The position numbers were made by a program, and so were the translations under genes. The notes below the pieces were generated by a model. It made no database searches. It saw only the letters and a list, made by a program, of their open reading frames with translations, and was not told where the DNA came from. This document shows positions 15,657 through 64,000 of a stretch of 64,000 bases of DNA, one piece after another (position 1 is the stretch's first letter; the number at the start of each line of letters is the position of its first letter). This stretch comes from Candidatus Wildermuthbacteria bacterium (GTDB lineage: Bacteria > Patescibacteriota > Minisyncoccia > Minisyncoccales > PEYH01), in contig JBBIKX010000001.1 in NCBI GenBank assembly GCA_037445205.1, positions 8,767-72,766 of the forward strand, written 5' to 3'.

Positions 15657-16405
15657 GAGAAATTCCCGTTAAAACCAAAGAAGAAATAGAAATTATGGCC
15701 AGGGCCGGAAAAATCCTGGCTTTAATTTTAGATTCTTTAAAAAAAGAGATTCGAGCCGGCATAAAAACAAAAGATTTAGACTTAAAGGCCCGTCAATTAA
15801 TTAATTTTTACAAAGCGAAGCCAGCTTTTCTGGGATACGATAATTTTCCGGCTGTTTTATGCGTTTCCGTGAACGACATAATCGTCCACGGAGTGCCCTC
15901 TGATCATCAATTAAAAACAGGGGATATTATAAGCCTGGATCTTGGAATAAAATATGGCGGTTTTTATGTTGATATGGCGGTTACGATGCCGGTTGGAAAA
16001 GTTGATTCCGAGGCCTTAAGATTGATAAAAACCACAAAAAAAGCGCTCAAAAGAGCAATCAAAAAAGTCAGGCCCGGGAACACTTTTGGCGATGTCAGCA
16101 ACACTATTCAAAGATATATTGAGAAGCGGGGATTTTTTGTGATAAAAGATCTGTGCGGGCATGGCATCGGGAAAAAGCTTCACGAACCGCCGGAAATTTT
16201 AAATTATGGCAAAAGAAAAACAGGTCCTTTGTTGCGCGAAGGAATGGTTTTTTGTATAGAGCCAATGGCTTCAATCAGCGCTGAAAAAACAAAAAAATCC
16301 GATGATATCTGCGGATACAAAACGATTGATGGATCTCTGTCCGCCCATTTTGAACATACAGTGGCAGTGACAAAAAATGGGGCAAGGATTCTCACTAAAA
16401 TTTGA
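15653..16405 (+). CDS. map: Methionine aminopeptidase type I
   Basis: 250 aa with pita-bread-fold metal-binding residues. Confidence 0.92.
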   Translation: MREIPVKTKEEIEIMARAGKILALILDSLKKEIRAGIKTKDLDLKARQLINFYKAKPAFLGYDNFPAVLCVSVNDIIVHGVPSDHQLKTGDIISLDLGIKYGGFYVDMAVTMPVGKVDSEALRLIKTTKKALKRAIKKVRPGNTFGDVSNTIQRYIEKRGFFVIKDLCGHGIGKKLHEPPEILNYGKRKTGPLLREGMVFCIEPMASISAEKTKKSDDICGYKTIDGSLSAHFEHTVAVTKNGARILTKI

Positions 16406-16433
16406 CGATTGGATCATATTATATTACTATAAA
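16402..16433 (+). promoter_or_regulatory. Putative promoter of GC-rich cassette A (TTGACG-17-TACTAT)
   Basis: The -35 box at 16402-16407 overlaps the map stop codon and the -10 box is at 16425-16430. It is followed by aatcccaaaaaagataAGGAGGTag. Confidence 0.45.
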
Positions 16434-16461
16434 GAATCCCAAAAAAGATAAGGAGGTAGTG

Positions 16462-16839
16462 ATGAGAAGGATAACGCTTTTAGTAGGACTAGTTCCGCTT
16501 TCGCTCTGCACGGTTTTGGCGAGTCATTTCCTTGAGCTGCGCGGTTTCCATTACGAGCAAGCCGCTGTCTTATTTCTTCCTTTCTTAATATGGCTGACCT
16601 TATTGCGGCTTGTGGAAGGGTCAAGGGCTTGGATAGCTTGGATCGGATTTGGAACCGCCAGCGCATTGGGCGGTTTCGTTGTTTTTTCGGTGGTTCTGCA
16701 TCATCTTGCAGAGTGGAAAATAGGCCTTTGTCTCATCATGTTAGTTGCCTACTGTTTTGCCTGTGGGTTCGTTGGCCTGCTTGGTTACGATATCTGGAAG
16801 CTACAGCGCCACAATCGCGACAAGAAGAAAAAATCGTAA
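16462..16839 (+). CDS. Small integral membrane protein, about 4 TM (GC-rich cassette A)
   Basis: SD AAGGAGGT at 16449-16456 sits 5 nt before the ATG. The 125-aa hydrophobic protein has much higher GC than its flanks and is followed by a strong terminator. Confidence 0.6.
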   Translation: MRRITLLVGLVPLSLCTVLASHFLELRGFHYEQAAVLFLPFLIWLTLLRLVEGSRAWIAWIGFGTASALGGFVVFSVVLHHLAEWKIGLCLIMLVAYCFACGFVGLLGYDIWKLQRHNRDKKKKS

Positions 16840-16882
16840 CAAAGCAGAGCCGGGCAGATGGGGAAATTGAGGTTGGGATGTC

Positions 16883-16915
16883 GGGGGCATAGCTAGGCCC
16901 CCTTTTTCTTTTTTT
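16883..16915 (+). terminator. Rho-independent terminator of cassette A
   Basis: Stem gggggc/gccccc around loop atagctag, followed by tttttcttttttt. Confidence 0.75.
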
Positions 16916-16961
16916 GAAAAAGATGATAGAATAAAAAAGATAAAGAATTAATTTAAAAAAA

Positions 16962-17696
16962 ATGAAACTATCAATAATTATTCCCGCGTACAACGAAGAA
17001 AAAAGACTGCCCAAAACGCTTTTATCGATAGATAAGCATTTGAAAGGACAATCTTATGAATATGAGATTATTGTTGTAAGCGATGGTTCAAAAGACGACA
17101 CCGCAAAGATGGCTAATGATTTAAAGCCCAATGTTTCAGGCCTGAAAGTGATTGACAACAAGGAAAATCACGGCAAGGGATATGTCGTGAGGCAGGGAAT
17201 GCTTGAGGCAAGAGGAGATTATCGCATTTTCAGCGATGCTGATAATTCTACCACCATTGATCAGGTTGAAAGAATGTGGCCTTGGTTTGAAAAAGGATAC
17301 GACATCGTCATAGGATCAAGAGATGTTGAGGGTTCTGTTTTAAATCCTCCCCAGCCCTGGCTCAGAAAAGTTATCTTTGGAGGAGGGTTCAAGCTGGTCA
17401 GAAAATTTATAATCGGCCTTTGGAATATAAATGATACCCAGTGCGGCTTTAAATGCTTTACAAAAAAAGCCGCGGAAGACATTTTCTCTTCTTCAAAAAT
17501 TGACGGCTTTGCGTTTGATGTGGAAATACTGGTTTTGGCGAAGAGAATGAAGCATAAAATCAAAGAAATACCAATTACCTGGATAAATGACGTTGAGTCA
17601 AAAGTGAAATTAAAACATGTTTTCAAAATGTTTTTGGAAATGCTTAAATTGAGAAAGGATTTAGTTTTTGGAAAATATGGAAAAAGAAGAATCTAA
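16962..17696 (+). CDS. Family 2 glycosyltransferase (dolichyl-phosphate-sugar transferase-like)
   Basis: 244 aa with IIIPAYNEE...VVSDGSKDDT...DAD motifs. Confidence 0.85.
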   Translation: MKLSIIIPAYNEEKRLPKTLLSIDKHLKGQSYEYEIIVVSDGSKDDTAKMANDLKPNVSGLKVIDNKENHGKGYVVRQGMLEARGDYRIFSDADNSTTIDQVERMWPWFEKGYDIVIGSRDVEGSVLNPPQPWLRKVIFGGGFKLVRKFIIGLWNINDTQCGFKCFTKKAAEDIFSSSKIDGFAFDVEILVLAKRMKHKIKEIPITWINDVESKVKLKHVFKMFLEMLKLRKDLVFGKYGKRRI

Positions 17697-18726
17697 TCCA
17701 TTTCCGTCACAGCTGCGCTATGATTTGGTTTCAAAAGACTGGGTAATTATCGCCACGGGCCGGGCAAAAAAACCCCAGCTTTTTAAGCAGGCAAGAAAAC
17801 CCCAACAAGCAGTCAGGAGAAAAGATTGCCCATTTTGCAAAACAGAAACGCAATTGTTGCCCACCCTTGTTTTTTCCAATGGAAAAAGACAAGACCTGAA
17901 AAAAAACAATGGCAAAATTCCAAAAAATTGGACAACCGTCGTTATTCCCAACAAATACCCGGCCCTTTTACCCCACCCCGATCTTGGTAAAAAAATGGAA
18001 GGCGGGCTTTATCAAACAATGAACGCGGTCGGTTTTCACGAGGTTGTGGTTACCAGAAATCATCAAAAAACAATGGCAAAGTTTTCTTTAAAGGAAGCAA
18101 AAGAACTTATGGATGTTTATCAGGCAAGATATCTTGATTTAATGAAGAAAAAATTCGTAAATTATATTTCCATATTTCATAACCATGGCCAGGCGGCCGG
18201 CGCCTCCATAGAACATCCTCACTCTCAAATTATTACAACGCCCCTGATCGATTCGGATTTAAACAAAGCGCTTATCAACGGCCATAGATATTTTAAGAAA
18301 TTCAAAGAATGCATCTATTGCAGGATGAATAGATGGGAAATAAGAGCGAAAAAAAGAATTATTTTTGAAAATAAAAATTTTATTGCCGTTTGCCCTTTTG
18401 CCTCTAAAGCCGCTTTTCAGGTCATTATATCGCCCAAAAAACACCTTTCTTATTTTGAGCGAATAACAGAAAAAGAAAAAATTGATTTGGCAGATGCTTT
18501 TAGAACGGCTTGCGCAAAGCTTGAAAAAGGCCTAAATAGCCCCGCTTATAATTTTTATCTTCACACCGCCCCTTGCGACAGAAAAAAATATCCCTTTTAT
18601 CATTGGCACTGGACTATTATTCCCAAGACATCGACTTGGGCCGGTTTTGAAATCGGCACAAGAATTGAAATTTCCACCATTGAGCCCGAAAAAGCAGCGC
18701 AGTATTTAAGAGAACAAAGGACTTAA
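17668..18726 (+). CDS. GalT-family (galactose-1-phosphate uridylyltransferase-like) HIT-superfamily nucleotidyltransferase
   Basis: 352 aa with CPFC zinc motif and HPHSQ active-site motif. Confidence 0.7.
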   Translation: MENMEKEESNPFPSQLRYDLVSKDWVIIATGRAKKPQLFKQARKPQQAVRRKDCPFCKTETQLLPTLVFSNGKRQDLKKNNGKIPKNWTTVVIPNKYPALLPHPDLGKKMEGGLYQTMNAVGFHEVVVTRNHQKTMAKFSLKEAKELMDVYQARYLDLMKKKFVNYISIFHNHGQAAGASIEHPHSQIITTPLIDSDLNKALINGHRYFKKFKECIYCRMNRWEIRAKKRIIFENKNFIAVCPFASKAAFQVIISPKKHLSYFERITEKEKIDLADAFRTACAKLEKGLNSPAYNFYLHTAPCDRKKYPFYHWHWTIIPKTSTWAGFEIGTRIEISTIEPEKAAQYLREQRT

Positions 18727-18840
18727 GTTTTTTGTAATGGGGAAAAATATATCTGGAAAGCATAGAGGGGGTTGGCACGAGATTTACGCTTGTTTTTCCG
18801 TTTGCAAGACAGAGCTACTTAAAATCAGCTCAAAAGTCTT

Positions 18841-19587
18841 ATGAATAAAACAATAATTATAGCAAACTGGAAATGCAATCCGAATTCTCTAAAAGAGGCA
18901 AAAAATATTTTTGGAAAAATCAAAAAATCCCTTAGCCGTTTTAAAAAGATAGAAATAGTGGTTTGCGCGCCATTTGTCTATCTTTTTTCTTTAAAAAATA
19001 TCGCGGGAGGGAATATTCTTCTGGGCGCCCAAGATGTTTTTTGGGAAGAGGGGGGAGCGTTTACAAGCCAAATTTCTTCTTTAATGCTTAAAGACGCCGG
19101 ATGCAAATACGTGATAATTGGCCATAGCGAAAGAAGGAGATTCGGAGAGAGCGATGTAACGATAAATAAAAAGATTAAGAAGGCGATTTCTTTTGGGTTA
19201 AATGTTATTTTTTGTGTTGGGGAAACAAAGGAGGAAAGAGAAAAAGGAAGGACGTTTGAAGCGGTGTCAGGGCAGTTAAAAATTGGGTTGGGCGGTGTAT
19301 CAAAAAACTTGACGAAAAATATCATTATCGCCTATGAGCCGGTTTGGGCGATAAATCCGGGAAAACCCTGTTTATATGACGACGCCATGACAATGAATAT
19401 TTTTATTAAAAAAAATCTTGTTAAAATTTTTGGAAAGAATTTTTCCCAGAAAATAAGAATAATTTACGGAGGGAGCGTTGATTCCCAAAACGCAAAAGAT
19501 TATATAGAAAAAACGCTTATGAAAGGATTATTGGTTGGATCCGCTTCTTTAACAGAAGATTTTATAAAGATAGCAAAAAAAATATAA
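18841..19587 (+). CDS. tpiA: Triosephosphate isomerase
   Basis: 248 aa with ANWKCN, IGHSERR and YEPVWAI motifs. Confidence 0.92.
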   Translation: MNKTIIIANWKCNPNSLKEAKNIFGKIKKSLSRFKKIEIVVCAPFVYLFSLKNIAGGNILLGAQDVFWEEGGAFTSQISSLMLKDAGCKYVIIGHSERRRFGESDVTINKKIKKAISFGLNVIFCVGETKEEREKGRTFEAVSGQLKIGLGGVSKNLTKNIIIAYEPVWAINPGKPCLYDDAMTMNIFIKKNLVKIFGKNFSQKIRIIYGGSVDSQNAKDYIEKTLMKGLLVGSASLTEDFIKIAKKI

Positions 19588-19635
19588 TTTCTTGTTTTCG
19601 CCTGACCTTTTTGATAGTATATACAAAGAAATTTT

Positions 19636-20145
19636 ATGAAAGACATAACTTTCGGAAGGTTTTTTAATCCCACAAAGGGCTATATTGATTTTTCAGAAGT
19701 TTTAAATGAAATCTTTTTTTATTTTCAGGAGAGGCCGGAAAAATTTTATGAAGTTGTTTTGGGCTGCGATTCGTCTTCCCAAAAAGAGCCATTTTTTCCT
19801 GTGGCCATTGTTGTTTTAAGAAGAGGGGAGGGCGGAAGGTTTTTTTTGAAAAAAATCAAATATCGCCATAGAAAATTTTATAATCATCAACAAAGGATTT
19901 TAGAAGAAGTTTTTTTGTCCTGTCAGATGGCGCTTATCATAAAAGATAGGATTAACAATGAAATCAGGGGGAAAATACCAAATTTAAAATTGGAATTTAA
20001 ATATATCCATGCCGATGTGGGAACAAATGGATTGACCCGCGATATGATAAAGGAAGTGGTTGGATTGATCAAGGGGAACGGATTCGAGGCAAAAATCAAG
20101 CCCGAATCTTTTGCGGCTACGATTGTAGCCGATCGCTACTCCTAA
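19636..20145 (+). CDS. Hypothetical protein, possibly YkuK/DUF458-like RNase-H-fold
   Basis: 169 aa with GCDSS...GGRFFLKKI; assigned only from a remembered family resemblance. Confidence 0.35.
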   Translation: MKDITFGRFFNPTKGYIDFSEVLNEIFFYFQERPEKFYEVVLGCDSSSQKEPFFPVAIVVLRRGEGGRFFLKKIKYRHRKFYNHQQRILEEVFLSCQMALIIKDRINNEIRGKIPNLKLEFKYIHADVGTNGLTRDMIKEVVGLIKGNGFEAKIKPESFAATIVADRYS

Positions 20146-20164
20146 AAAATCAATAAAAAAGCCA

Positions 20165-21970: not shown

Positions 21971-21979
21971 TTTTAAATT

Positions 21980-23215: not shown

Positions 23216-23218
23216 TGC

Positions 23219-23247: not shown

Positions 23248-23292
23248 TTTTTACATTGTCCGGATTTAAAAAGACAATTTAGGAAGTAGCAA

Positions 23293-23511: not shown

Positions 23512-23525
23512 AGTTTTTTTGAAAT

Positions 23526-40483: not shown

Positions 40484-40505
40484 CGATACAAATTTCTTAC
40501 CTTAA

Positions 40506-40531
40506 AGCCGCGCTCCAGCGTGGCTTTTTTT
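40506..40531 (+). terminator. Rho-independent terminator (agccgcgc-tcca-gcgtggct-ttttttt); likely the original tRNA-operon terminator
   Basis: An 8-bp stem (one G:U pair), tetraloop and a 7-T run. Confidence 0.75.
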
Positions 40532-40589
40532 GGTTGAAATTTTTTTTGATTCTGATAGATTGAAAAAATAACCAAAAGGAGGTGAGACA

Positions 40590-41588
40590 GTGTCTTGCGA
40601 TACAGCCGTTATCGTGAATGTGCAGGCGGGCGCGGGAATGACTCGCTGGAAGTTGGCGCATCTTATGCGCCAGTTAAACCGCATTCTTTCTGTGCCCAAG
40701 AGTTGTGTCTGGCTGACTCGGGAAACCGGCGAGAGCAGCGCCACATCCCTGGCATCTTTTGCCCAAAGCAGAGGGGCCAAAGCAGTGATTGTCTTTGGCG
40801 GAGACGGCACGGTTCATCAGGCAGTAAACGGCCTGAAACTGCCCGATCCTTCAATCTCTGTTGGCATTGTGCCCTGCGGTACGGCCAACGTGGTTGCTTC
40901 CTGCCTTGGAATGCCAAGAAATGTCAAAGCGGCGCTGGAAGTCATAAGGGCCGGAATGACAAGAAAGATCGATCTGGGAATCCTGGAGGGAGATGGCCTT
41001 CCAAGATACGCGGTTTCCACGCTAAGCGTGGGACTTGACGCGATGATAAACGAACTGGCGCATCGTGTTAAGCCCCTGTTTCGGAAATACCATCTGCCAT
41101 CCATCTTGGGCTACATTCCGCCTCTTCTTAGATACACTCTTAATGAAGTTCCGCTCTACGATGTAGCTGTCAAAAAGGATGGATTGGTTTTTTGCGAAAG
41201 GATATCCTTTCTGGCAGTAACAAACACTCCATGGTATGGAGGCGGATTGGTGGACAGAACTGCCAAGCTTGACGACGGGCTGTTTAACATGATATGCGCC
41301 AGAAAGATCAGGTCCCGCGATCTTCCCTGGTGGATGTTTCAGATGTGGCAGGGAAATCACATCTATTATCCCAAGGTTTTTCTGCCCTGCTCTTCGTTTT
41401 CAGGATTAAGCATAAGTTCTGACTTTCCCTTGCCCGCGCAGATTGACGGACAGATTCTGCCCGCCCGGAAGAACATCGCAATCTCTGTCGTTCCCCGCCT
41501 CCTGCAGGTTTTCGCACCTTTGCCCCAACCAGAAAGAACAAAGCATTCTGGTTGGGGTTGTTTTTTTGATATGTCCAGGTTCAGATAG
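40590..41588 (+). CDS. Diacylglycerol-kinase catalytic-domain lipid kinase (YegS/BmrU-like), in GC-rich island B
   Basis: 332 aa with GTG start and SD AGGAGGTG 5 nt upstream. Motifs VIVFGGDGTVHQAVNGL (the GGDGT signature) and IVPCGTANVVA. GC is much higher than the flanks. Confidence 0.75.
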   Translation: MSCDTAVIVNVQAGAGMTRWKLAHLMRQLNRILSVPKSCVWLTRETGESSATSLASFAQSRGAKAVIVFGGDGTVHQAVNGLKLPDPSISVGIVPCGTANVVASCLGMPRNVKAALEVIRAGMTRKIDLGILEGDGLPRYAVSTLSVGLDAMINELAHRVKPLFRKYHLPSILGYIPPLLRYTLNEVPLYDVAVKKDGLVFCERISFLAVTNTPWYGGGLVDRTAKLDDGLFNMICARKIRSRDLPWWMFQMWQGNHIYYPKVFLPCSSFSGLSISSDFPLPAQIDGQILPARKNIAISVVPRLLQVFAPLPQPERTKHSGWGCFFDMSRFR

Positions 41589-41591
41589 ATA

Positions 41592-41620
41592 TTGACCAAA
41601 ATATTCTTTTATGATATAAT
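41592..41620 (+). promoter_or_regulatory. Consensus sigma70 promoter TTGACC-17-TATAAT inside island B
   Basis: TTGACC at 41592-41597 and TATAAT at 41615-41620. It is followed by ttggatatccTAAGGAGGTG. Confidence 0.65.
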
Positions 41621-41647
41621 TTGGATATCCTAAGGAGGTGATGCGTG

Positions 41648-41815
41648 ATGAAGGCGGGTATAGTGATTTTCCGGCATACACAAGTAGAAACGCTGCAGGC
41701 GACGGTTAACGCGTTTCTCAAGGTTCACGCTCCACATATGGAGAACCTTGAGCATCAGCTGGTAGTGACTCCAGACGGCACTATCGTCTTGACCCTGCTT
41801 TATCGGGCTAAGTAG
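41648..41815 (+). CDS. Small hypothetical protein (55 aa), island B
   Basis: SD TAAGGAGGTG at 41631-41640, ATG 7 nt later. Translation MKAGIVIFRHTQVETLQATVNAFLKVHAPHMENLEHQLVVTPDGTIVLTLLYRAK*. Not in the ORF track (under 60 aa). Confidence 0.5.
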   Translation: MKAGIVIFRHTQVETLQATVNAFLKVHAPHMENLEHQLVVTPDGTIVLTLLYRAK

Positions 41816-41837: not shown

Positions 41838-42101
41838 ATGCGTAAGCTCTTTGCGGCGATTGTCGGACTCTACCGTCGGCTCTGGATGATTGAGCCCCGC
41901 CGTTTCAAACGGGGACAAATCATCCAGTTCGAAGACTGGCGCGATGGCATTAGAGTTGCCAAAGCCAGATACCTGGTTCTCGGCAATACACCCTCCGAGA
42001 AGAGGTACGTCCTGGAGGGTGTTGGGCCCGGCAACAAGGGGAGGCGCGAGCGCCTTCGCTTCCGCTGGGTTGACAAACACGCACATTTGGTGCGCGGCTG
42101 A
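41838..42101 (+). CDS. Small basic hypothetical protein (87 aa), island B
   Basis: SD AAGGAGGG at 41823-41830, then the ATG. A strong terminator follows. Confidence 0.55.
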   Translation: MRKLFAAIVGLYRRLWMIEPRRFKRGQIIQFEDWRDGIRVAKARYLVLGNTPSEKRYVLEGVGPGNKGRRERLRFRWVDKHAHLVRG

Positions 42102-42111: not shown

Positions 42112-42155
42112 CCGCCCGGGACTAAGGAGGAGTTCCGGGCGGTTGTTGTTTTTTG
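42112..42155 (+). terminator. Rho-independent terminator (ccgcccgg...ccgggcgg, ttgttgttttttg)
   Basis: An 8-bp perfect GC stem with a T-rich tail. The loop contains taaggagg. Confidence 0.7.
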
Positions 42156-42204: not shown

Positions 42205-42348
42205 GTGCACAAATGGGTAATCTTTGCGGTAGTGGTGATCCCAAGCATTCTCATCGGTTCCCTTATCTGCCTTTTCCAAGGAAAGGGCAGAAGAGTGTGG
42301 TCCTTCGCTAAGGGGAGAGTCTTTGCTTGGGCGGAAACGGATTGGTGA
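42205..42348 (+). CDS. Tiny single-TM protein (47 aa, GTG start), island B
   Basis: SD GGGAGGTGG at 42192-42200, 6 nt before the GTG. Translation VHKWVIFAVVVIPSILIGSLICLFQGKGRRVWSFAKGRVFAWAETDW*. Confidence 0.45.
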   Translation: MHKWVIFAVVVIPSILIGSLICLFQGKGRRVWSFAKGRVFAWAETDW

Positions 42349-42371: not shown

Positions 42372-42407
42372 AACCGGCGCATCTTCTGATGGGCCGGTTC
42401 ATCTTTT
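42372..42407 (+). terminator. Hairpin aaccggc...gccggtt with a weak U tail; probable right-end terminator of island B
   Basis: A 7-bp stem with a 14-nt loop, followed by catcttttaacaaaaaa. The sequence turns AT-rich after this point. Confidence 0.4.
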
Positions 42408-53540: not shown

Positions 53541-55024
53541 TAAATTCATCAAAAAAATATATTCCCGTCATCGGGCTTGAAATACATACGGAATTAAAAA
53601 CTAATTCCAAAATGTTTTGCGGGTGCAAAAACGATTCGCAGGAAAAAGAAGCGAATTTGAATATTTGTCCTGTTTGCATGGGTCATCCCGGCACTCTCCC
53701 CGTTATAAACAAAACAGCGATTCGTTTTGTCATAAAAACAGGGATTGCTCTGAATTGTAAAATTACAAAAGAGTCGCGATTTGAAAGAAAAAATTATTTT
53801 TATCCCGATCTTCCAAAAGGATATCAGATTTCTCAATACAAAGAGCCGTTTTGTTTTAATGGCTTTTTAAAAATAAATAATAAAAAAATAAGAATTAGAA
53901 GGGTTCATTTGGAAGAAGATACTGCCCGCCTGATACACTCCAAAAATGGATATTCGCTGATTGATTTCAACCGCGCCGGCATTCCTTTAATGGAGCTTGT
54001 AACGGAGCCGGACATAGAATCTTCTAAAGAGGCATCAGACTTCGCAAAAAAACTTCAGTTGATCCTGAGATATTTAAATGTTTCCAGCGCTGACATGGAA
54101 AAAGGGCAATTGAGAGTGGAGGCAAATATTTCATTAATAAACGCAAATTTTAAAGCAAAAAACGCAAAACTAGGAACAAAGGTGGAGATCAAAAATTTAA
54201 ATTCGTTTAGGGCAGTTGAGAGGGCGATAGAATATGAAATAGAAAGGCAAAAGGAGTTACTATTAAATGATGAGAGGGTGGCGCAGGAAACAAGAGGATG
54301 GGATCCTCAATCAGAAAGAACCTTTCCCCAGAGAGAAAAAGAAGAGGCGCATGATTACCGCTACTTTCCAGAGCCGGATTTGCCCCAGATTTATATAAAA
54401 AAAGACTATCTGGAGGCGATAAAAAAAGGAATTCCCGAACTTCCCGATCAAAAAATAAAAAGATTAAAAGAAGAATTTTTTGTTAACGAACAATCAGCCC
54501 AGATTCTTGTCTCTAACAGAGATTTAAGCGAGTATTTTGAAAAATCGGCAAGCGAGCTTTTAAGATGGTCAAAAGACAAAAGATTAGATCAAAAGAGCCA
54601 AAAAGAATTGATACAGAGCGCCGCCAACTATCTTTTGACAGATTTACTCGGCTGTCTTTCAGGGAAAGAATTTTCAGAAAAAGATTTTCCCATAACGCCT
54701 GAAAATTTCGGAGAGTTTATCGCTCTTGTCCGCGATAAAAAATTCACAAGCAAAATGGCAAAAATTCTTTTAGGAGAGATGTTTGATTCCGGCCAAGATC
54801 CCTCAACCATAATAAAAAAAAGAGGATTAATCCAGACGGACAACGAAGATGAGATTAAAAAAATAGTGCAAAAAATAATTTCATCAAATCCTCGGGCATT
54901 TGAAGATTATAAAAAAGGAAAAGAAAATGCTCTTCAATTCATGATTGGACAAATGATGAAAGAAACTAAAGGCACTATAAATCCCCAGATGGCAAAGAAA
55001 GCGTTGATTGATTTTTTAAAATAA
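53537..55024 (+). CDS. gatB: Glutamyl/aspartyl-tRNA amidotransferase subunit B
   Basis: 495 aa. N-terminal GLEIHTELKT...CGC...CPVC motifs and GatB/YqeY tail. Confidence 0.93.
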   Translation: MINSSKKYIPVIGLEIHTELKTNSKMFCGCKNDSQEKEANLNICPVCMGHPGTLPVINKTAIRFVIKTGIALNCKITKESRFERKNYFYPDLPKGYQISQYKEPFCFNGFLKINNKKIRIRRVHLEEDTARLIHSKNGYSLIDFNRAGIPLMELVTEPDIESSKEASDFAKKLQLILRYLNVSSADMEKGQLRVEANISLINANFKAKNAKLGTKVEIKNLNSFRAVERAIEYEIERQKELLLNDERVAQETRGWDPQSERTFPQREKEEAHDYRYFPEPDLPQIYIKKDYLEAIKKGIPELPDQKIKRLKEEFFVNEQSAQILVSNRDLSEYFEKSASELLRWSKDKRLDQKSQKELIQSAANYLLTDLLGCLSGKEFSEKDFPITPENFGEFIALVRDKKFTSKMAKILLGEMFDSGQDPSTIIKKRGLIQTDNEDEIKKIVQKIISSNPRAFEDYKKGKENALQFMIGQMMKETKGTINPQMAKKALIDFLK

Positions 55025-55135
55025 TATATAATACTTAAAATCCAGAATAAGGAGGTGGTCGCCGGGATACAGTCCAAAGAGGGCGAGGGGCGTTTTCGGA
55101 AGCAAAACCGGATCTTTCTTGCGAAAGGAGCATCG

Positions 55136-55333
55136 ATGCCAGCAGTAAATCTTGTTAACGTGGCGAGGTCATTGCCGGACGAAGAGGCGGAGAGGCTTTT
55201 GCTCATCGAGCAAAGCAATCCTGATTGCCTCAGGGCGCTTTTTGCGGTCGTTCTGAGCGCCGGAACGCTGGAAAAAGCTGTTCCTCTGATCCAACGAGTT
55301 CTTGCTGGCGCACCCTTGTTTCCGGGCGGATGA
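55136..55333 (+). CDS. Small hypothetical protein (65 aa) in GC-rich cassette C; start uncertain
   Basis: Inside a GC-rich segment that begins with AAGGAGGTG (55049-55057) but has no start codon at the right spacing. An internal aaaggag-N5-ATG sits at 55136. The ORF ends at a TGA followed by a perfect terminator. Confidence 0.4.
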   Translation: MPAVNLVNVARSLPDEEAERLLLIEQSNPDCLRALFAVVLSAGTLEKAVPLIQRVLAGAPLFPGG

Positions 55334-56341
55334 AACTGGATGGGGCTCCCTTCGGGAGCCCCCTTGTTTTGTTAAAAAAGTATTTATTATTTTTCTGGCT
55401 TTTTTTTTATCCCCAACCCAATTTACTCTTTTGTCTTTTTTAAACCAGGTTATTTGTCTTTTGGCGTAACTTTCAATTGCTTTTTGGAGCATTCCGACCA
55501 TTTCATCATAGCCAATTTTTTTTTGAAGATAGCAAGCAATATATCTGTATTCCAATCCAAATTCTTCAAGCCGTTTCCAGGAAACGCCGTCTTTTCTTAG
55601 CGCTCTGACCTCTTTTATCATCCCCTGATTTAATCTTTTGTATAGCCGTTTTCTGATTAAATTTTTTAGCTCTTTTTTTTCTTTCTTGATGCCGATAATG
55701 AGCAAATCAAACAATTGGCTTTTTTTTATGACGGGTACCGGTTTTTTTGATTTCAAAACTATTTCAATTGCCCGGATTAATCTGCGGGGATTTTTTTTAT
55801 CAATAATTTTTGCCCGCCGCGGGTCCAGTTTTTTTAACATTTGATAAAGCTGGTTTGGCAATTTTTTTTCCAGTTTTTTCCTTAATTTCCAGTCCGGCGG
55901 AATTTTTGGGATGACGATTCCGTCAACGACTGATTGAATATAGAATCCGGTGCCGCCGCAAAGAATGGGCAGCTTATTTCTCTTATGGATTTCCCTTATT
56001 TTTTTTAATGCCATTTTTTGATACTGGGCGACCGTAAATTTCCTTTTTGGAGAAGCAACATCCAAAAGATGATGTTGGATGCCTCTATAAAGATATGACT
56101 GTTTTGAAATTTGAGATTTAGGACTTGGAGTTTGTTTAGAAATTAGAAATTTGGAATTAGAAATTTTATCTCGTGGAACCTTCCCGGTTCCGATATCCAT
56201 TTTGCGATAAACCTGACGGGAATCGGCCGAAATCACCTCTCCGTTAAAATTTTTTGCCAGTGCTACCGCCAAATCGCTTTTTCCCGAAGCAGTGGGTCCA
56301 AGAATAACTAACAATATTTTTCGGTCCGTTTTTTTTGACAT
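55169..56341 (-). CDS. miaA: tRNA dimethylallyltransferase; about the last 70 codons read antisense through GC-rich cassette C (an insert-derived C-terminal extension or lost stop)
   Basis: P-loop ILGPTASGKS and MiaA core. The lysine-rich host-like tail ...NWVGDKKKARKIINTFLTKQ is followed by the GC-rich-encoded GGSRREPHPVSS... Confidence 0.8.
   Translation of the reverse strand: MSKKTDRKILLVILGPTASGKSDLAVALAKNFNGEVISADSRQVYRKMDIGTGKVPRDKISNSKFLISKQTPSPKSQISKQSYLYRGIQHHLLDVASPKRKFTVAQYQKMALKKIREIHKRNKLPILCGGTGFYIQSVVDGIVIPKIPPDWKLRKKLEKKLPNQLYQMLKKLDPRRAKIIDKKNPRRLIRAIEIVLKSKKPVPVIKKSQLFDLLIIGIKKEKKELKNLIRKRLYKRLNQGMIKEVRALRKDGVSWKRLEEFGLEYRYIACYLQKKIGYDEMVGMLQKAIESYAKRQITWFKKDKRVNWVGDKKKARKIINTFLTKQGGSRREPHPVSSARKQGCASKNSLDQRNSFFQRSGAQNDRKKRPEAIRIALLDEQKPLRLFVRQ
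55342..55374 (+). terminator. Rho-independent terminator with UUCG tetraloop (ggggctccc-ttcg-gggagcccc-cttgttttgtt)
   Basis: A 9-bp perfect stem with a T-rich tail. It lies antisense inside the extended miaA reading frame. Confidence 0.75.
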
Positions 56342-56363
56342 AATCCCAAGAATATTATATCAT
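56335..56363 (+). promoter_or_regulatory. Consensus sigma70 promoter TTGACA-17-TATCAT of cassette D
   Basis: The -35 box at 56335-56340 overlaps the miaA ATG on the opposite strand. The -10 box is at 56358-56363, followed by tataaatcccaaaaAGGAGGTGgttaATG. Confidence 0.6.
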
Positions 56364-56389
56364 TATAAATCCCAAAAAGGAGGTGGTTA

Positions 56390-56683
56390 ATGTCGTATTA
56401 TTTAGCAATAATGTTTATGTTGCTAAGCGCAGGCTTTGCAAGTGCGGGGTTTAGGGTGATCCGTTATGCCCTTCGAGGAAAGCTGACAGGCACTATGCTT
56501 GATAGAGGCATGATACTCGGTACTGTCATCGTGCTTGTTGGAGTGGGGCTCGCCACGATTCCCATCATCTTCCAGAGCGGGATAAGATGGTGGTGTCTTG
56601 CGCTGGCGCTTGTGGAGGCAGTGGTCTGTATTGGGCTCTGGATGCTGCATGTCTTCTCGTCTGCGTCAATGGATTCACCCTAA
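56390..56683 (+). CDS. Small integral membrane protein, about 3 TM (GC-rich cassette D)
   Basis: 97 aa. A perfect SD AAGGAGGTG sits 4 nt before the ATG. Hydrophobic and GC-rich. Confidence 0.6.
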   Translation: MSYYLAIMFMLLSAGFASAGFRVIRYALRGKLTGTMLDRGMILGTVIVLVGVGLATIPIIFQSGIRWWCLALALVEAVVCIGLWMLHVFSSASMDSP

Positions 56684-56695
56684 GGCGTGGATTGC

Positions 56696-56728
56696 GAGGG
56701 CTCTCTTGTGCGGGGGCCCTCCTTTTTT
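56696..56728 (+). terminator. GC-rich hairpin plus T6 terminator of cassette D
   Basis: gagggc...gccctc stem followed by cttttttt. The T run abuts the miaB stop codon on the other strand. Confidence 0.6.
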
Positions 56729-58061: not shown

Positions 58062-58092
58062 ATCTTTTCTTTAAGATAAACGCTAAAGAATA

Positions 58093-58536
58093 TTATTCTC
58101 CGATTATTTGAATCTGGATATTTCTTTTTTTAGGATAAGCGAGTTCTATGAAAAGAATGCTCTGCCATAAGCCGAGCTGCAGCTTTCCTTCAATTATATT
58201 TAGGCAGACGCTTGTTGGTATATGCAATGCTCTGCAATGAGAGTGGGCGTTCGGTTTCTCATCCGGACACATATTTACGGTTCTTATTTCAAAATTATTG
58301 TGATTATACGCTTTATTTTTCGGAGAACAATGCTCTAAGTGTTCTTTAATGTCCTGTAAAAGCAACGGTTCGTTTTCATTTACAAAAACAGAGGCGGTTG
58401 TGTGAAGAGACTGAATATTAATAATTCCGTTTTTTACCGCAGTTTTTTTGGTTATTTCTTTAATCCTTTCCGTGATATCGATAATTTGAAGTTCTTCGAC
58501 GGTATCAATAGAGATAATCGAATTTTTGATAATCAT
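58093..58536 (-). CDS. yjbQ: YjbQ-family (UPF0047) protein
   Basis: 147 aa with TASVFVNENEP...LGLWQSI...ELAYPKKRNIQIQIIGE. Confidence 0.75.
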   Translation of the reverse strand: MIIKNSIISIDTVEELQIIDITERIKEITKKTAVKNGIINIQSLHTTASVFVNENEPLLLQDIKEHLEHCSPKNKAYNHNNFEIRTVNMCPDEKPNAHSHCRALHIPTSVCLNIIEGKLQLGLWQSILFIELAYPKKRNIQIQIIGE

Positions 58537-60287: not shown

Positions 60288-60329
60288 AACGATTAATTAT
60301 ATTATTAATTTTTCAGGATTTTTTCAAAT

Positions 60330-61916
60330 TTAGGAAAGAGGGATATTGATGTAAAACAAAGAACCCTTCTCTGTTTTTTTGGGGGTTGCCCAGACAATTC
60401 CCCTATGAAGTTCGGTAAACTTTCTTGCGATATAAAGACCCAGCCCCGCCCCTCCTGTCCAGCTTTCTTCGCCCGCTTTTCCCCGCATAAAGCTTTGGAA
60501 GAGATTTGCAGCTTCTTCTTCGCTCATTCCAAGCCCCGTGTCAGAAATTTTTATAAGCGCCCTGTTTTCTTTAACAGTGCTGATAATTTCTATCCCGCCC
60601 TTCTCTGTGTATTTGATTGCGTTATCAATAATATTTATAAAAACCTGCCTTATTTTTTCTTTGTCTAACGACATTAAAGGAAGAGGAATATTCTTTTTAT
60701 ATCTTAAATACAGATCTTTCTGATGGGCGGCAATTTTTAATTGTTCCACCACTTCTCCAATTAAATCCTCAAGCGAGGTTTTTTCAATGTTCATTTCCAT
60801 TTTTCCCGCTTCAATCCGGGAGATGTCTAAAAGATCCTGCACAAGCTTATTAAGCTGGGAAACCACCTGAAAAGAATTTTTTATTGGTTTTTTGATTCCC
60901 CGCGAAACTTCTCCGTAGTTTTCTTCAAGAACCATTGAAAGGTAGCCGCGAACGATGGTTAAAGGGGTTCTCAATTGGTGCGAGGCAATAGAAATAAATT
61001 CTGTTTTCGCCTTGTCCAGCTCCGATAATTTTTCATAAGCAATTTTCAGTTTTTTCGCCATTTCCTCCATTTCTTTCCTCTGCTTTATTTCCCTGAGAAC
61101 GCTTCTTATAAGCAAAACTCCAAAAATCAAAAAAACAAAAAACACAAATCCCTTCCACATATACTGCCAGAGGTGAACCGCGTCAAAAATGTTAAAAAAC
61201 AAAACGATGCTTATAATGCCTACAATCAGGGCGGCAATTACAACCTTTATGTCAAAAAGTCGGTGCTTGACGATGGCATAGGAGAGTATTAGCGGGTAAA
61301 ACGCAACAAAAAAATTTCCATAGGGCGGAAAAGAAATTCCATACCACAATGGAAAATTTGTTGCGCCCCCTCCAAACCCAATTATTATTGCCAGAAAAAT
61401 ATATTTTATCTGGTTGCGGATATCGTTAGATGATTTTTTATAGACTTTTAAAAGTTCGTAGCAGGTGTAAGCAATTATCGCGCCGTATGCCCCAAAAAGA
61501 TAAATGGTGTAGACAGGTCCGGCTATCGGCCACCAGGGAAAATTAAGCTGGGGTTTTACATTTTTTACAAAAAGAGGGCTGAAGCTGAATAGAAATAAAA
61601 TTGCTGTAAGCAGGTATCCAGAAATAATGACCGCCCTTCTTTTTTTATGTAAATCATAAATTGTAAAAATCCAATGAAGGAATGTTATCGGTATGAAAGT
61701 TGATCCAATACTTAAGCATTTCGCCCAAAATAACGCAGTTTCTTTATTAAGACTTAGCTGCCAGAAACCGTAACTGACTCCCCAAAAAACAAGCGCGACA
61801 TTCATTAGCAAAAAAGTTTTATGGGAAAGCTTTTTTGGATTTTTATAGAATACAAAAAAACCGAAAATTATAGCCGATAGTCCGTTGATAAAACCAGATA
61901 AAGCGAATATATTCAT
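60330..61916 (-). CDS. Sensor histidine kinase with a multi-TM N-terminal domain
   Basis: About 8 TM segments, then HisKA (ISIASHQLRTPL) and HATPase_c (GGAGLGLYI). The ATG at 61916 is preferred over the upstream TTG at 61928. Confidence 0.85.
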   Translation of the reverse strand: MNIFALSGFINGLSAIIFGFFVFYKNPKKLSHKTFLLMNVALVFWGVSYGFWQLSLNKETALFWAKCLSIGSTFIPITFLHWIFTIYDLHKKRRAVIISGYLLTAILFLFSFSPLFVKNVKPQLNFPWWPIAGPVYTIYLFGAYGAIIAYTCYELLKVYKKSSNDIRNQIKYIFLAIIIGFGGGATNFPLWYGISFPPYGNFFVAFYPLILSYAIVKHRLFDIKVVIAALIVGIISIVLFFNIFDAVHLWQYMWKGFVFFVFLIFGVLLIRSVLREIKQRKEMEEMAKKLKIAYEKLSELDKAKTEFISIASHQLRTPLTIVRGYLSMVLEENYGEVSRGIKKPIKNSFQVVSQLNKLVQDLLDISRIEAGKMEMNIEKTSLEDLIGEVVEQLKIAAHQKDLYLRYKKNIPLPLMSLDKEKIRQVFINIIDNAIKYTEKGGIEIISTVKENRALIKISDTGLGMSEEEAANLFQSFMRGKAGEESWTGGAGLGLYIARKFTELHRGIVWATPKKTEKGSLFYINIPLS

Positions 61917-61920
61917 ATAC

Positions 61921-61971
61921 AAAAACAAATCCCCCGGAGGTGCGTTAGTTCATTTTAACACCTTTTGGGGG
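61921..61971 (-). terminator. Hairpin terminator of cassette E (minus strand)
   Basis: ccccc-gg-aggtg ... cacct-ttt-ggggg stems with a U-rich tail on the minus strand. It overlaps the kinase start region. Confidence 0.5.
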
Positions 61972-61983
61972 ATAGAGACAACG

Positions 61984-62859
61984 TTATGCTGGTTTATAGA
62001 CACGGTTTACCAGCACTTGGCGGGCAAACGTCACCCTCCATGTCGGGCCTACGAATCCGACTTCCCGGAGCAGTTGTTCCCATTGCGGAATTGCGAGGAA
62101 GGTGTATGTTCCTTCTTTTCCCTTTCTTTGTATTTCAAGGGCGTGACGAAGTATGCTTGTGCCCTGAAGAATTCGGCTAAAATCCCGATTTCTTATGTAG
62201 GGCAGAGGATTGAGCATGTCAGGAAGAGAAGCGACAAACACCCATTGGAAGTGAACGTTTTGTCTGGGAGTAGACCAGACGATATGTCCTCCGGGCTTGA
62301 GCACCCTATGCATCTCTCTGAAAACTTCCCTCATGGCCCTTATGCCTTTTTCGCTTCGAAAGTCAGTTGCATAGGGGATAACTAAATTTGCGATAATTCC
62401 ATCAAAGTGGTTATCGTCGAAGGGAAGTTCTTCGCCAAGATGAGCGAAAACAAGATGCATGGGCAACGTGGGGTGAAGAGATTGCGTTTTCCGCGCCGGA
62501 TCAAGAACTATATCCAGACCAACTACCAATTTGATAGTTCTGCCGGATTTGTTCCATGCCAAGAGAGCCATCTTGGCGGGTCCGCAGCCTACATCCAGCC
62601 AAACTTCGTTAGCTTTGGGCTGGATTAATCCGGCGACTGTCGTTGTAAGGTTGTGGTAGGGTCTTGCCTTTTCCAGGTTTTTGTAAATCCTTGCGTAATC
62701 CCTCCAAAACGCCAACTCTTGTCCCCAAGAGCGGATCCTTCCTCTTGTGAAGGGCGAAAGCCCGTTCTCATTTGCTTCCAGCCACTCTTCTATGCTCTCC
62801 GTGCTTAATCCTTCTCCAAAGCACGGCCCAAGGATCTCTGATATGCTTTTGGTTTTCAT
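61984..62859 (-). CDS. Class I SAM-dependent methyltransferase (GC-rich cassette E)
   Basis: 291 aa. Motif I VWLDVGCGPAKMALL and post-I/II motifs. SD AAGGAGGT sits 5 nt before the ATG. GC is much higher than the flanks. Confidence 0.75.
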   Translation of the reverse strand: MKTKSISEILGPCFGEGLSTESIEEWLEANENGLSPFTRGRIRSWGQELAFWRDYARIYKNLEKARPYHNLTTTVAGLIQPKANEVWLDVGCGPAKMALLAWNKSGRTIKLVVGLDIVLDPARKTQSLHPTLPMHLVFAHLGEELPFDDNHFDGIIANLVIPYATDFRSEKGIRAMREVFREMHRVLKPGGHIVWSTPRQNVHFQWVFVASLPDMLNPLPYIRNRDFSRILQGTSILRHALEIQRKGKEGTYTFLAIPQWEQLLREVGFVGPTWRVTFARQVLVNRVYKPA

Positions 62860-62906
62860 TCCTTACCTCCTTGCTTGCCCGATAAATCAAAGGGCTGTGT
62901 TTATTT

Positions 62907-62935
62907 TTTATAGCCGTATAGCAGGAATTTGTCAA
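62907..62935 (-). promoter_or_regulatory. Consensus sigma70 promoter TTGACA-17-TATAAA driving cassette E (minus strand)
   Basis: Reverse complement of 62930-62935 is TTGACA and of 62907-62912 is TATAAA. The -35 box sits 5 nt from the dnaE stop codon. Confidence 0.6.
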
Positions 62936-62939
62936 TTTT

Positions 62940-64000
62940 CTATTCTTCAATGATTTCTTCTATTTCCTCGGCAATAATTTTTGGGATTTCGTTTTCAAAA
63001 TTAACGCGGCCCGAAATGAAAACAACTTTATTTTCCTGCAGGGCGGCCGGATTTTTTTCAATGATGCTTGGAAAAATAACCGTTTCTATTTTCTCTGAAA
63101 GGTCCTCAATTTCAACAAAAAGCATTGGTTTGCCGTTCTTGGTGATAATTCTTTTTATTTTGTTGATGAGTCCGCCAATCTTTATTCTGGTCCCCGGCAT
63201 AATTTTTTTGACAAACGAGATGGGAAAATTATTTTCTTTATTTACGCCATTTTGGTAAATCTTTACTATGGGAGTTGTTTTTTCAGCGATTATTTTCTCC
63301 ATAGACCTTAGAGGATGTCCGGAAATATAAAGGCCCAGCAGTTCTTTTTCCCACAAAAGCTTTTCTTTTTCATGGGCATCTTGGCAATCTTCCATTTTCA
63401 GGCCGGGATTAATTTTGGGCAATCCGTCAAAAAGCCCTTTTTGCCCGTTAGATTTTGACTTTTTAAGCTCTCTATTATATTCAAGCAATCTCTCCAAATT
63501 TTTCAAAAGCTTGTTTCTTTTTTCGAGGTTGTCAAAAGCTCCCGCCTTGATAAGCGCCTCCATTGATTTTTTATTGAGATCTTTGCAATCTATGCGATGG
63601 ATAAAATCGCTGATTGATTGGTACTTGCCATTTGATTTTCGTTCTTTGACGATTGTTTCTACGATATTGTGCCCCACGTTCTTAATCGCCAAAAGCCCAA
63701 AGCGGATCTGATTTTTTCCTACCACGCTGAAGTTTTCAAAGCTTTCATTGATGTCGGGACCAAAAACTTCAATTTTCATTCTTTTGCATTCTTCCAAAAG
63801 AAAAGCGATTCTTTCCACGTCCTGTTTTTCGCAAGCCAAAACAGACGCCATAAACTCCACCGGAAAATGCGCTTTTAAATACGCGGTTTGATGCGCAATT
63901 GTCGCGTATCCGACGCTGTGGCTTTTGTTGAATCCATAACTTGCGAACGGCAAAAACCATTGCCATATTTTCTGGGCGATTTCTTTTTTAATGTCTTGAG
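62940..64000 (-). CDS. dnaE: DNA polymerase III alpha subunit, 3' part (5' portion lies outside the window)
   Basis: ...IAQKIWQWFLPFASYGFNKSHSVGYA... and an OB-fold C-terminus. The reading frame is open to the window edge. Confidence 0.88.
   Translation of the reverse strand, partial: QDIKKEIAQKIWQWFLPFASYGFNKSHSVGYATIAHQTAYLKAHFPVEFMASVLACEKQDVERIAFLLEECKRMKIEVFGPDINESFENFSVVGKNQIRFGLLAIKNVGHNIVETIVKERKSNGKYQSISDFIHRIDCKDLNKKSMEALIKAGAFDNLEKRNKLLKNLERLLEYNRELKKSKSNGQKGLFDGLPKINPGLKMEDCQDAHEKEKLLWEKELLGLYISGHPLRSMEKIIAEKTTPIVKIYQNGVNKENNFPISFVKKIMPGTRIKIGGLINKIKRIITKNGKPMLFVEIEDLSEKIETVIFPSIIEKNPAALQENKVVFISGRVNFENEIPKIIAEEIEEIIEE

Follow-up and report, generated by a model that had tools for sequence, protein, structure and literature searches.

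The 64,000-nt stretch of contig JBBIKX010000001.1 analysed here (hereafter the window), from a Candidatus Wildermuthbacteria bacterium, is by its Pfam matches and gene tables a segment of a Parcubacteria/Paceibacteria chromosome (Patescibacteria, or candidate phyla radiation, CPR). Its genes include rpsG-fusA-tuf, the S10, spc and alpha ribosomal operons, secY-adk-map, murA, mreB, gatCAB, pheST and gyrB, together with nusG-rplK, a thyA-folA-dcd-tmk block, miaA, miaB, thrS and dnaE. The best 80 miaB loci among species representatives, at 43–61% identity, all belong to Patescibacteria metagenome-assembled genomes (MAGs). Set among these host genes are five G+C-richer segments, here called cassettes A to E, each placed exactly at a gene boundary and each with host genes on both sides on the one contig. 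They are self-contained units, as an initial annotation of the sequence had held, and their open reading frames (ORFs) follow extended Shine-Dalgarno (SD) sequences, in a genome whose other genes have essentially none; the rest of the genome shares neither their translation signals nor their codon usage.

Anatomy of the five cassettes

The window has a mean G+C of 0.387 and the five segments stand at 0.48–0.51 over 400–1900 bp, at the positions where they had first been noticed. Conserved host genes locally reach 0.47–0.49 over a few hundred bases, so that raw G+C is not unique to the cassettes. The G+C content of third codon positions (GC3), on the other hand, separates the two sets completely, with 0.50–0.68 in the cassette ORFs and 0.38 ± 0.037 (maximum 0.47) in 65 host genes. 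The possibility that the G+C-rich islands are structured RNA genes was rejected, the only matches to Rfam (at gathering threshold) and ARAGORN in the window being three tRNAs at 38977–39251. The features of the cassettes are collected in Table 1. Cassette B is composite, and consists of three units in series: B1, B2 with B3, and B4.

Table 1. Features of cassettes A to E. Promoters and promoter-like sites are consensus matches only. L-numbers (L003–L167) denote the loci of relatives, of which L165, L166 and L167 are sister-genome comparisons; z-scores are for folding against shuffled sequences.
Feature	Position	Strand	Remarks
A, promoter-like site TTGACG-17-TACTAT	16402..16430	+	-35 overlaps the map stop TGA (16403-16405); identical in sister L167
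A, SD AAGGAGGT	16450..16457	+	4 nt before ATG; -12.4 kcal/mol
ORF A	16462..16839	+	125 aa, four hydrophobic segments, KKKKS tail; ORFan; GC3 0.52
A, terminator GGGGGC...GCCCCC and T-run	16883..16915	+	hairpin ranking, shuffle folding
B, terminator hairpin and T-run before the cassette	40504..40533	+	z -4.4; insulates B from the tRNA/p355 region; equivalent in L083
B, promoter P1 TTGAAA-16-TAGATT with TG	40534..40561	+	consensus match
B1, SD AAAGGAGGTGA (11 nt)	40575..40585	+	core GAGGTGAGA conserved in L083/L084
ORF B1	40590..41588	+	332 aa, DAGK_cat and YegS_C lipid kinase; closest solved relative DgkB
B1, terminator hairpin (12-bp perfect arms) and T-run	41522..41566	+	overlaps the 3' end of B1; z -3.6
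B, promoter P2 TTGACC-17-TATAAT with TG	41592..41620	+	11/12 matches
B2, SD AAGGAGGTGAT (11 nt)	41632..41642	+	SD scan, duplex energy
ORF B2	41648..41815	+	55 aa, no family, GC3 0.57
ORF B3	41838..42101	+	87 aa, no family, GC3 0.68; SD AAGGAGG at 41823-41829
B3, terminator hairpin (12 pairs) and T-run	42112..42154	+	z -3.8
ORF B4	42205..42348	+	47-aa peptide with a single transmembrane segment; SD GGAGGTG at 42193-42199
B, closing terminator hairpin and T-run	42372..42407	+	z -4.9
C, promoter-like site TTGATT-17-TATAAT	55004..55032	+	overlaps the gatB 3' end; conserved in the sister
C, orphan SD-like AAGGAGGTGGT	55049..55059	+	5' end of the leader; no usable start behind it; GGGAGGTGGT in L165/L166
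C, SD GAAAGGAG	55123..55130	+	5 nt before ATG at 55136
ORF C	55136..55333	+	65 aa, no family; hyper-divergent allele between sisters
C, terminator GGGGCTCCC-TTC-GGGAGCCCC and T-run	55342..55374	+	z -3.1; miaA frame crosses on the other strand
D, promoter TTGACA-17-TATCAT	56335..56363	+	11/12 matches; -35 is miaA codons 1-2 on the opposite strand
D, SD AAAGGAGGTG (10 nt)	56376..56385	+	SD scan, duplex energy
ORF D	56390..56683	+	97 aa, three to four hydrophobic segments; ORFan
D, terminator, 10-pair hairpin and T-run	56696..56728	+	z -2.5
E, promoter TTGACA-17-TATAAA	62907..62935	-	4-5 nt from the dnaE stop codon
E, SD AAGGAGGT	62865..62872	-	5 nt before ATG; GGAGGT conserved in L085-L088
ORF E	61984..62859	-	291 aa, class I SAM-dependent methyltransferase
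Hairpin and T-run between E and the histidine-kinase gene	61921..61975	-	contains invariant TGTTAAAAT; conserved

A promoter-like site and a strong terminator of hairpin and T-run are present in A, C, D and E and, within B, for the units that follow P1 and P2; no convincing promoter was found upstream of B4. The sigma70-type promoters of the initial annotation therefore exist as sites, but they do not mark the cassettes out. Promoter-like hexamer pairs are not rarer in the window than chance would have them (51 against 40.6 expected, 54 against 47.2 and 22 against 20.8) and the consensus also serves host operons (tuf, for instance, is preceded by TTGACT-16-TATAAT), so the promoter is not cassette-specific. 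Some of the -35 boxes consist of host codons, the map stop codon in A and the first two codons of miaA in D, just as had been read from the sequence at the outset. The proposed shared leader core did not stand up: AATCCMAR has 26 matches in the window where 28.7 are expected, and only an 11-mer, AATCCCAAAAA, is common to the leaders of A and D and to no others. The proteins of A and D are not homologous, and the cassettes have no common sequence beyond their generic signals.

The terminators are more distinctive. In a ranking of G+C-rich hairpins with T-runs across the window, those of the cassettes come first, and they fold better than shuffled sequences (z -2.2 to -4.9), in agreement with what had been claimed for them. 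They are also the only 3' inverted repeats of the units. The cassette boundaries have neither target-site duplications nor inverted repeats, shared repeats being limited to A/T-rich low-complexity 7–10-mers; no transposase family was seen among the profile matches, no integrase among the window ORFs, and no attC. The units are thus neither integron cassettes nor insertion sequences, as had been recognised from the start.

Two cassettes have peculiarities of their own. The leader of C, about 100 nt long, folds no better than shuffles, and the miaA frame on the opposite strand runs through the cassette (55169–55390, minus strand), adding 73 codons antisense to the terminator and ORF of C. MiaA is consequently 390 residues long here against 317 in the sister genome, and C had rightly been said to remove the miaA stop codon. 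In E, the hairpin before the histidine-kinase gene has four pairs with compensatory changes across five genomes. The invariant TGTTAAAAT within it looks, from its sequence, like an extended -10-like element for the gene of this kinase, which has seven transmembrane segments (7TM); a single conserved structure seems to combine the terminator with the promoter of the next gene, here and in its equivalents in L085, L086 and L087.

Translation signals and codon usage

All eight cassette ORFs of the five segments are preceded by an SD of 7–11 nt. When pairing is scored against the canonical 16S tail, which is the only tail used and may not be this organism's own, the anti-SD duplex energies of these eight lie between -8.2 and -13.1 kcal/mol, while the mean for 64 host genes is -1.4 kcal/mol. 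Random positions in the window average -3.0 kcal/mol, that is, host starts pair more weakly than random sequence. Three of the 64 host genes reach -6 kcal/mol or lower, one of which is an artefact (a TTG start within the terminator of E); a strong SD therefore precedes 8 of 8 cassette ORFs and about 2 of 64 host genes, which upholds the dichotomy that the initial annotation had described. In a scan of the window with the canonical tail, SD sequences of 7–12 nt with a start codon at true ORF starts were found at cassette ORFs only.

The motif AAGGAGGT occurs seven times against 1.72 expected, an enrichment of about four-fold (none of 100 shuffles reached seven), and six of the seven copies are in cassettes. 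The sole copy elsewhere (47489–47496) is embedded in the 3' end of gyrB, 73 nt ahead of an ORF at 47562–49058, and has no start codon at SD distance downstream. That ORF, which encodes 498 residues of no family between gyrB and nusG, is AT-rich (31–33% G+C) and SD-less. It is missing from L083 and L084 and also from the sister genome, whose alignment skips from 47565 to 49028; young accessory genes with the host type of grammar thus exist too.

The starts of the host genes, taken together, have a context of their own. The residue at -1 is T in 75% of the genes and in 0 of the 8 cassette starts; the upstream region has 19% G+C, with A at 60% in positions -6 and -5 and G at only 2–7% in positions -12 to -9. 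This looks like the signature of a Kozak-like, SD-independent mode of initiation.

The codon usage of the cassettes is shifted in the two-fold families only. In the weak NNY families (TTY, TAY, AAY and ATY) the ratio C/(C+T) is 0.56 in the cassettes and 0.26 in the host (p = 3e-15), and the fraction of G in AAR, GAR and CAR is 0.49 against 0.28, whereas in the strong four-fold families (GCN, GGN, CCN and CGN) a GC3 of 0.58 against 0.55 is not a significant difference. The same two-fold-only shift is present in the orthologous cassettes of L083–L087. What remains of the G+C excess is a matter of amino-acid composition, the cassettes having 7.5% arginine and 4.5% lysine and the host 4.6% and 11.2%. 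The codon usage of the host is itself split by codon strength, with a GC3 of 0.55 in GCN, GGN, CCN and CGN and of 0.26–0.28 in the A/T-rich two-fold families. Two other accounts of the shift were rejected: as an exaggerated form of ribosomal-protein usage, with which it correlates poorly (r = 0.18), and as a by-product of amino-acid G+C, since the cassettes lie 2.8–6.8 residual standard deviations above the host regression.

Because the excess is absent from four-fold sites, the cassettes are not un-ameliorated donor DNA. In the orthologues of E and B1, GC3 moves with the genome background at a constant positive offset (0.50 on a background of 0.39, 0.39 on 0.27 and 0.26 on 0.19). Since synonymous sites have tracked a change of 0.2 in the background and four-fold sites have equilibrated, the two-fold preference would seem to be maintained gene by gene, most simply by selection on codon choice, rather than by another force or as a relic of a donor.

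The association of extended SDs with deviant codon usage was also surveyed in 87 Parcubacteria loci holding 1,419 ORFs, with reversed sequence as the control. ORFs with a 6-mer SD have a GC3 z-score of 1.8, against 0.2 for the others (p = 9e-14). Pairing with the canonical tail over at least 8 nt is possible before 41 ORFs, against 13 in the reversed control, and at least 9 nt before 24 against 3; the extended complementarity often reaches ...GGTGAT. These extended-SD ORFs have a median length of 139 aa, mostly lack a Pfam family, and show a GC3 z-score above 1.5 in 56% of cases (12% of other ORFs). By these counts about 3% of the genes in SD-poor genomes form an SD-led class. Among the extended-SD genes outside the window are ThyX-like, divergent thymidylate-synthase-like, dUTPase/DCD-like and PEP-utiliser-domain proteins (L027, 15191–17253; L029, 14449–15685; L011, 8047–8976; L085, 14601–15293), and the ThyX, thymidylate synthase and dUTPase set, which belongs to nucleotide metabolism, is reminiscent of phage modules.

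Conservation in relatives and age of the units

Among 5.8 billion proteins, the B1 kinase has its five closest homologues in one small clade; matches beyond it are 36% identical at best, and then below 31%. Two members of the clade, which come from other samples (L083 and L084), sit at the same locus, between gatA/p208/tRNAs and pheS. Their kinases are 55–56% identical to B1, while the flanking host proteins range from 45 to 92% (pheT 45%, pheS 60%, gatA 69%, gyrB 86%). The architecture is kept in L083: an upstream hairpin, a promoter-like site, GGGGAGGTGAGATT-ATG, a terminator, and a second unit of promoter, SD, ORF and terminator, with a recognisable homologue of the B4 peptide at the equivalent place. 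This cassette has a G+C content of 0.50–0.56 in a genome of 0.38, and tRNA-Asp lies directly 5' of it. In the window, a perfect 19-nt direct repeat, AATCCCCTTGGGTCCGCAA, is found at 39235–39253, where it is the 3' end of tRNA-Asp, and again at 40465–40483. It brackets not B but a 1.2-kb AT-rich, SD-less insertion that contains a 355-aa ORF of no family (p355, 39306–40373). The repeat resembles a duplication of the att type, though no integrase accompanies it, and p355 was probably inserted at the tRNA-Asp site later than B.

For ORF E, which reaches the curated cut-off of no specific family (all NCBIfam matches fall below it), homologues of 51–56% identity were found in four metagenome contigs (L085, 56%; L086–L088, 51–53%). 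The gene order of L085 is identical: dnaE, methyltransferase, kinase, thrS, yjbQ, miaB, miaA. In L086–L088, which are from genomes of 29% G+C, the methyltransferase precedes the same 7TM histidine kinase. A promoter-like site and an extended SD (AAAGGAGGTGA, AGGAGGTGA) accompany the methyltransferase in all four, and the long hairpin ahead of the kinase gene recurs in each. In L004, dnaE and the kinase gene are only 138 nt apart. We infer that B and E have long been resident and were inherited at fixed loci, not recently inserted; their relatives keep the SD, the terminators and the GC3 offset.

The other three cassettes appear to be young ORFans. Among 1.84 billion representative proteins, ORF A and ORF D have one homologue each, which in both cases is the copy at the same site in the sister genome (83% and 89% identity). 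Their dN/dS values against the sister are 0.70 and 0.89, where host genes have 0.04–0.27, as would be expected of weak constraint at the protein level or of diversifying selection. Cassette A, with its promoter and terminator, forms an island of 90–97% identity between flanks of 65–80%. Cassette C is the reverse: it cannot be aligned with its counterpart (35–39% nucleotide identity) between flanks of 95–99%, its promoter and orphan SD are kept, and the two sister proteins are only faintly similar.

The slots of C and D are variable in more distant relatives as well. That of D is empty in L004 and L085, where miaB and miaA are 10 nt apart, and that of C in L012, L015 and L034, where 1–30 nt separate miaA from gatB. 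In L024, L030 and L038 the miaA–gatB slot is taken by an unrelated 131-aa ORF with TTGACA-17-TATACT, a GGGAGG SD and a strong terminator, in a unit of 47–51% G+C within genomes of 34–36%; in L003, L004 and L085 it is taken by a membrane protein of about 170 aa with a DxDGT motif, in a unit of the same grammar that is unrelated to C. The expectation that the flanking genes would be directly adjacent in related genomes was thus borne out in some relatives for the junctions of C, D and E, but not for B, which is in place in L083 and L084, nor for E in L085–L088, where the unit is present.

Cumulative GC skew and gene orientation both change sign at the convergent gatB/miaA junction (about 55000–55400), the site of cassette C, and this junction might be the replication terminus; against that idea, there are relatives with only 1–2 nt between gatB and miaA and no space for a dif site. 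Near cassette A, about 7 kb of non-ribosomal genes between map and rpsM (16402–23640) break the usual continuity of the spc and alpha operons; they comprise the cassette, a GT2 glycosyltransferase, a GalT/HIT-like protein and four more ORFs. Elsewhere in the window, at 50007–50435, rplK (L11) is followed directly by thyA and no rplA (uL1) adjoins it, which fits the uL1-lacking group of Parcubacteria.

The sister pair as a whole is a recombination mosaic of 65–99% identity within which the cassettes behave as units. Blocks of 95–100% and of 63–85% meet at sharp boundaries (window 15231–17236 and 53500–62943, against L167 and L165), the divergent ones including, for example, the 3' half of map, the GT2 gene, miaB, yjbQ and thrS. 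Such a mosaic argues for frequent homologous recombination with more divergent lineages. The exact cassette proteins were recovered from Logan assemblies of the source run (SRR11582151), with B and E identical in independent Logan contigs of that run; A, C, D and E are also present in the sister MAG (GCA_964383555.1) and in a second run, at near-identical loci.

Origin and significance of the units

To the anatomy of the units, the presence and absence of SDs, the conservation in relatives and the codon pattern as observed, we add the following reading with moderate confidence: the cassettes would be insulated, moron-like accessory transcription units, translated through SD pairing in an otherwise SD-independent Parcubacteria genome and acquired by piecemeal accretion. 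In each, a sigma70-type promoter, formed partly from the termini of neighbouring host genes, would fire a leader of about 20–47 nt (about 100 in C); the SD of 7–11 nt, complementary to the canonical 16S 3' tail up to ...GGAGGUGAU, would recruit the 30S subunit, and the G+C-rich hairpin with its U-run would end transcription ahead of the next host operon. With SD-independent initiation in the rest of the genome, two expression grammars would operate side by side. The units would represent neither one mobile-element family nor a recent import from a single donor. Their foreign amino-acid composition and grammar and their patchy distribution, together with the placing of B immediately behind tRNA-Asp, point to a horizontal origin, most likely through moron-like accretion, piece by piece, of foreign genes at operon boundaries and beside tRNA-Asp. 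After acquisition the four-fold synonymous sites would have equilibrated to the host, and the SD grammar would have stayed because it is needed for the translation of more G+C-rich, more structured mRNAs. In B and E, selection would keep the SD, the terminators and the preference for C- and G-ending codons in the two-fold families; the slots of A, C and D, empty or differently filled in relatives, would be swapped whole between strains by homologous recombination.

GGAGGT(GA) has been kept over about 45% protein divergence while the adjacent leader has diverged, which argues that the SD is functional, and if it is functional the ribosome that reads it should carry the canonical tail. Extended SDs kept down to about 55% protein identity would therefore speak, indirectly, for an anti-SD that exists and is in use, presumably by the organism's own ribosome. 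A 16S tail ending in ...GAUCACCUCCUUU would support such use; should the tail be unable to pair with GGAGGUGA, the conserved SDs would become a real paradox.

Several points weigh against the accretion of SD-led units. Neither 16S rRNA, with its 3' end, nor rpsU is present in the window or in the 2.07 Mb of loci collected from relatives. In the survey of Tsurumaki et al. (PMC9297842), no more than 48% of Parcubacteria had a detected anti-SD motif, which was mostly missing in the uL1-lacking group; this genome may belong to that group, since L11 stands directly before thyA. Depletion of SD-like motifs within host genes, an indirect sign of a working anti-SD, does not stand out from controls: in 818 host coding sequences, the ratio of internal GGAGG to its frequency in synonymous-codon shuffles is 0.91 (z -2.9), and control hexamers vary equally. 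No donor lineage was identified, and outside the clade even the nearest homologues are 28–36% identical. A and D, whose dN/dS is high, are evolving almost neutrally as proteins and could be non-functional. B, in principle, may owe its shared position in relatives to site-specific integration that happened repeatedly beside tRNA-Asp.

A recent import of one module family from a common G+C-richer donor, by horizontal gene transfer (HGT) or by engineering and with the donor signals kept, had been the first interpretation of these segments. It would explain why the cassettes have a grammar and a codon usage alien to the host, why A, C and D are confined to this genome and its sister, why their junctions are empty in some relatives and why A and D share an 11-mer in their leaders. 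We consider it unlikely, since B and E are conserved in place at about 55% protein identity and occupy the same loci in distant relatives, so that recent insertion would be left for A, C and D alone. Furthermore, four-fold sites are already at the host level, the leader motif is unenriched, the promoters use host codons and promoter-like sites occur at chance frequency; the cassettes are not similar to one another and have no close homologue outside the clade, and engineering is excluded by the occurrence of the units in several wild metagenomes. It is conceivable, though doubtful, that they are phage morons or remnants of integrative elements, whose strong SDs let parasite mRNAs out-compete the SD-less mRNAs of the host and the remainder of which has been lost. 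The definition of the moron (PMC3594210) fits them in their own promoter and terminator, their deviant composition and their insertion between genes that are neighbours in relatives; tRNA-Asp, a classic site of integration, adjoins B, with a 19-nt att-like repeat at the same place; the extended-SD genes of other Parcubacteria include phage-typical ThyX-, thymidylate-synthase- and dUTPase-like genes; and B1 matches PHROG 8777. The PHROG matches are generic, however, the 64 kb contain no phage structural, integrase or recombinase gene, no relative of A, B1, D or E was found among 2.9 million viral contigs (IMG/VR), and E is wired to the host histidine-kinase gene through the conserved terminator/promoter hairpin.

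The preference for C over U in the NNY families and a shift limited to two-fold families resemble translational selection and, with the conservation of the signals over long divergence, could mean that these are native, very highly expressed genes in which strong signals and C-ending codons are adaptations to high output, with no horizontal origin at all. This too is improbable: the ribosomal-protein, EF-Tu and EF-G genes have neither SD nor codon shift, and ORFan membrane peptides, a lipid kinase and a methyltransferase would make an odd set of top-expressed genes. The dN/dS of 0.7–0.9 in A and D, the patchy phyletic distribution and an amino-acid composition of G+C-richer genomes (7.5% arginine, 4.5% lysine) also speak against it. 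Deviant composition and signals are equally what a chimeric assembly or a contaminated MAG would produce, but the probability of such an artefact is negligible. Host genes flank every cassette on one contig, independent Logan assemblies, a second run and the sister MAG exclude chimerism, and orthologues occupy the same context in other metagenomes. Lastly, expression of the cassettes in a partner cell might be the reason why their grammar is the universal bacterial one, an idea to which we give very little credence.

Among known systems, the units are close to the phage moron in the sense of Hendrix and Juhala (PMC3594210), an independent unit with its own promoter and factor-independent terminator and a deviant composition. 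They share these properties, and a cargo of accessory genes that play no part in the operons around them, and for C, D and E the insertion between genes that are adjacent in some relatives. They differ in residing in the core chromosome (ribosomal-protein genes and map, tRNA-Asp and pheS, gatB, miaA and miaB, dnaE) and not in a prophage, and two of them have been inherited over deep divergence. The switch in the mode of initiation, the hallmark of the units described here, is outside the definition of a moron. A parallel for that switch exists in SD-blind Bacteroidia, in which rpsU carries an extended SD that pairs with the canonical 16S tail and is proposed to be necessary to engage an anti-SD that is normally unavailable, sequestered by bS21, bS18 and bS6; in Flavobacteria the SD-led set is essentially this one gene, in an autoregulatory loop (PMC7797042, PMC9976891, PMC13000453). 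The likeness lies in a genome otherwise SD-less with a few extended SDs (here 7–11 nt, with the canonical tail as the reference). Here, by contrast, the class amounts to about 3% of ORFs, comprising dozens of accessory and ORFan genes and not rpsU, and each unit has its own promoter and terminator as well as a codon shift. The product of rpsU, bS21, is often absent in Parcubacteria (PMC9297842).

Genomic islets and tRNA-linked islands resemble the units in holding lineage-specific genes in fixed slots that are exchanged by homologous recombination between the flanks, and one unit does lie beside a tRNA gene with an att-like repeat nearby; the units, however, measure only 0.35–1.9 kb, no integrase is present, no direct repeats bound the G+C-rich units, and B and E are not strain-variable. 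Integron cassettes, which have no promoter, carry attC at their end and form arrays beside intI, are likewise small single-gene modules with diverse and mostly unknown cargo, but those described here have promoter-like sites and terminators of their own, are scattered, and lack attC and integrase. PADLOC gave no membership in a defence system, only a generic match to a methyltransferase domain (mad2, 1e-9) and one marginal match. The cassettes would be a variant of kinds already known, moron-like accretion and minority use of SDs in SD-less genomes; no description of the two-grammar arrangement in CPR genomes was found in the searchable literature.

The signs by which recent HGT is commonly recognised (deviant G+C, own promoter and terminator, foreign ribosome-binding site) can, to judge from B and E, be stable and selected traits of old residents, and composition-based calls of HGT would be misleading in these genomes. 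Annotation may be affected as well: a gene caller whose training set is the SD-less majority may overlook short SD-led ORFs or place their starts wrongly. The ribosomes of CPR bacteria are stripped-down and unusual, and the cassettes offer a concrete and experimentally tractable set of genes for testing how such ribosomes choose their mRNAs. We suggest, tentatively, that Parcubacteria keep the canonical anti-SD as a separate translation channel for an insulated accessory set that is monocistronic, has SDs of 8–12 nt and is under codon selection of its own. By analogy with the bS21-deficient ribosomes of Flavobacterium, this channel could be switched by masking and unmasking the 16S tail. If so, the SD-led set would be a translational regulon, perhaps tied to a host-associated lifestyle, in view of its cargo of membrane peptides, a lipid kinase and a kinase-linked methyltransferase.

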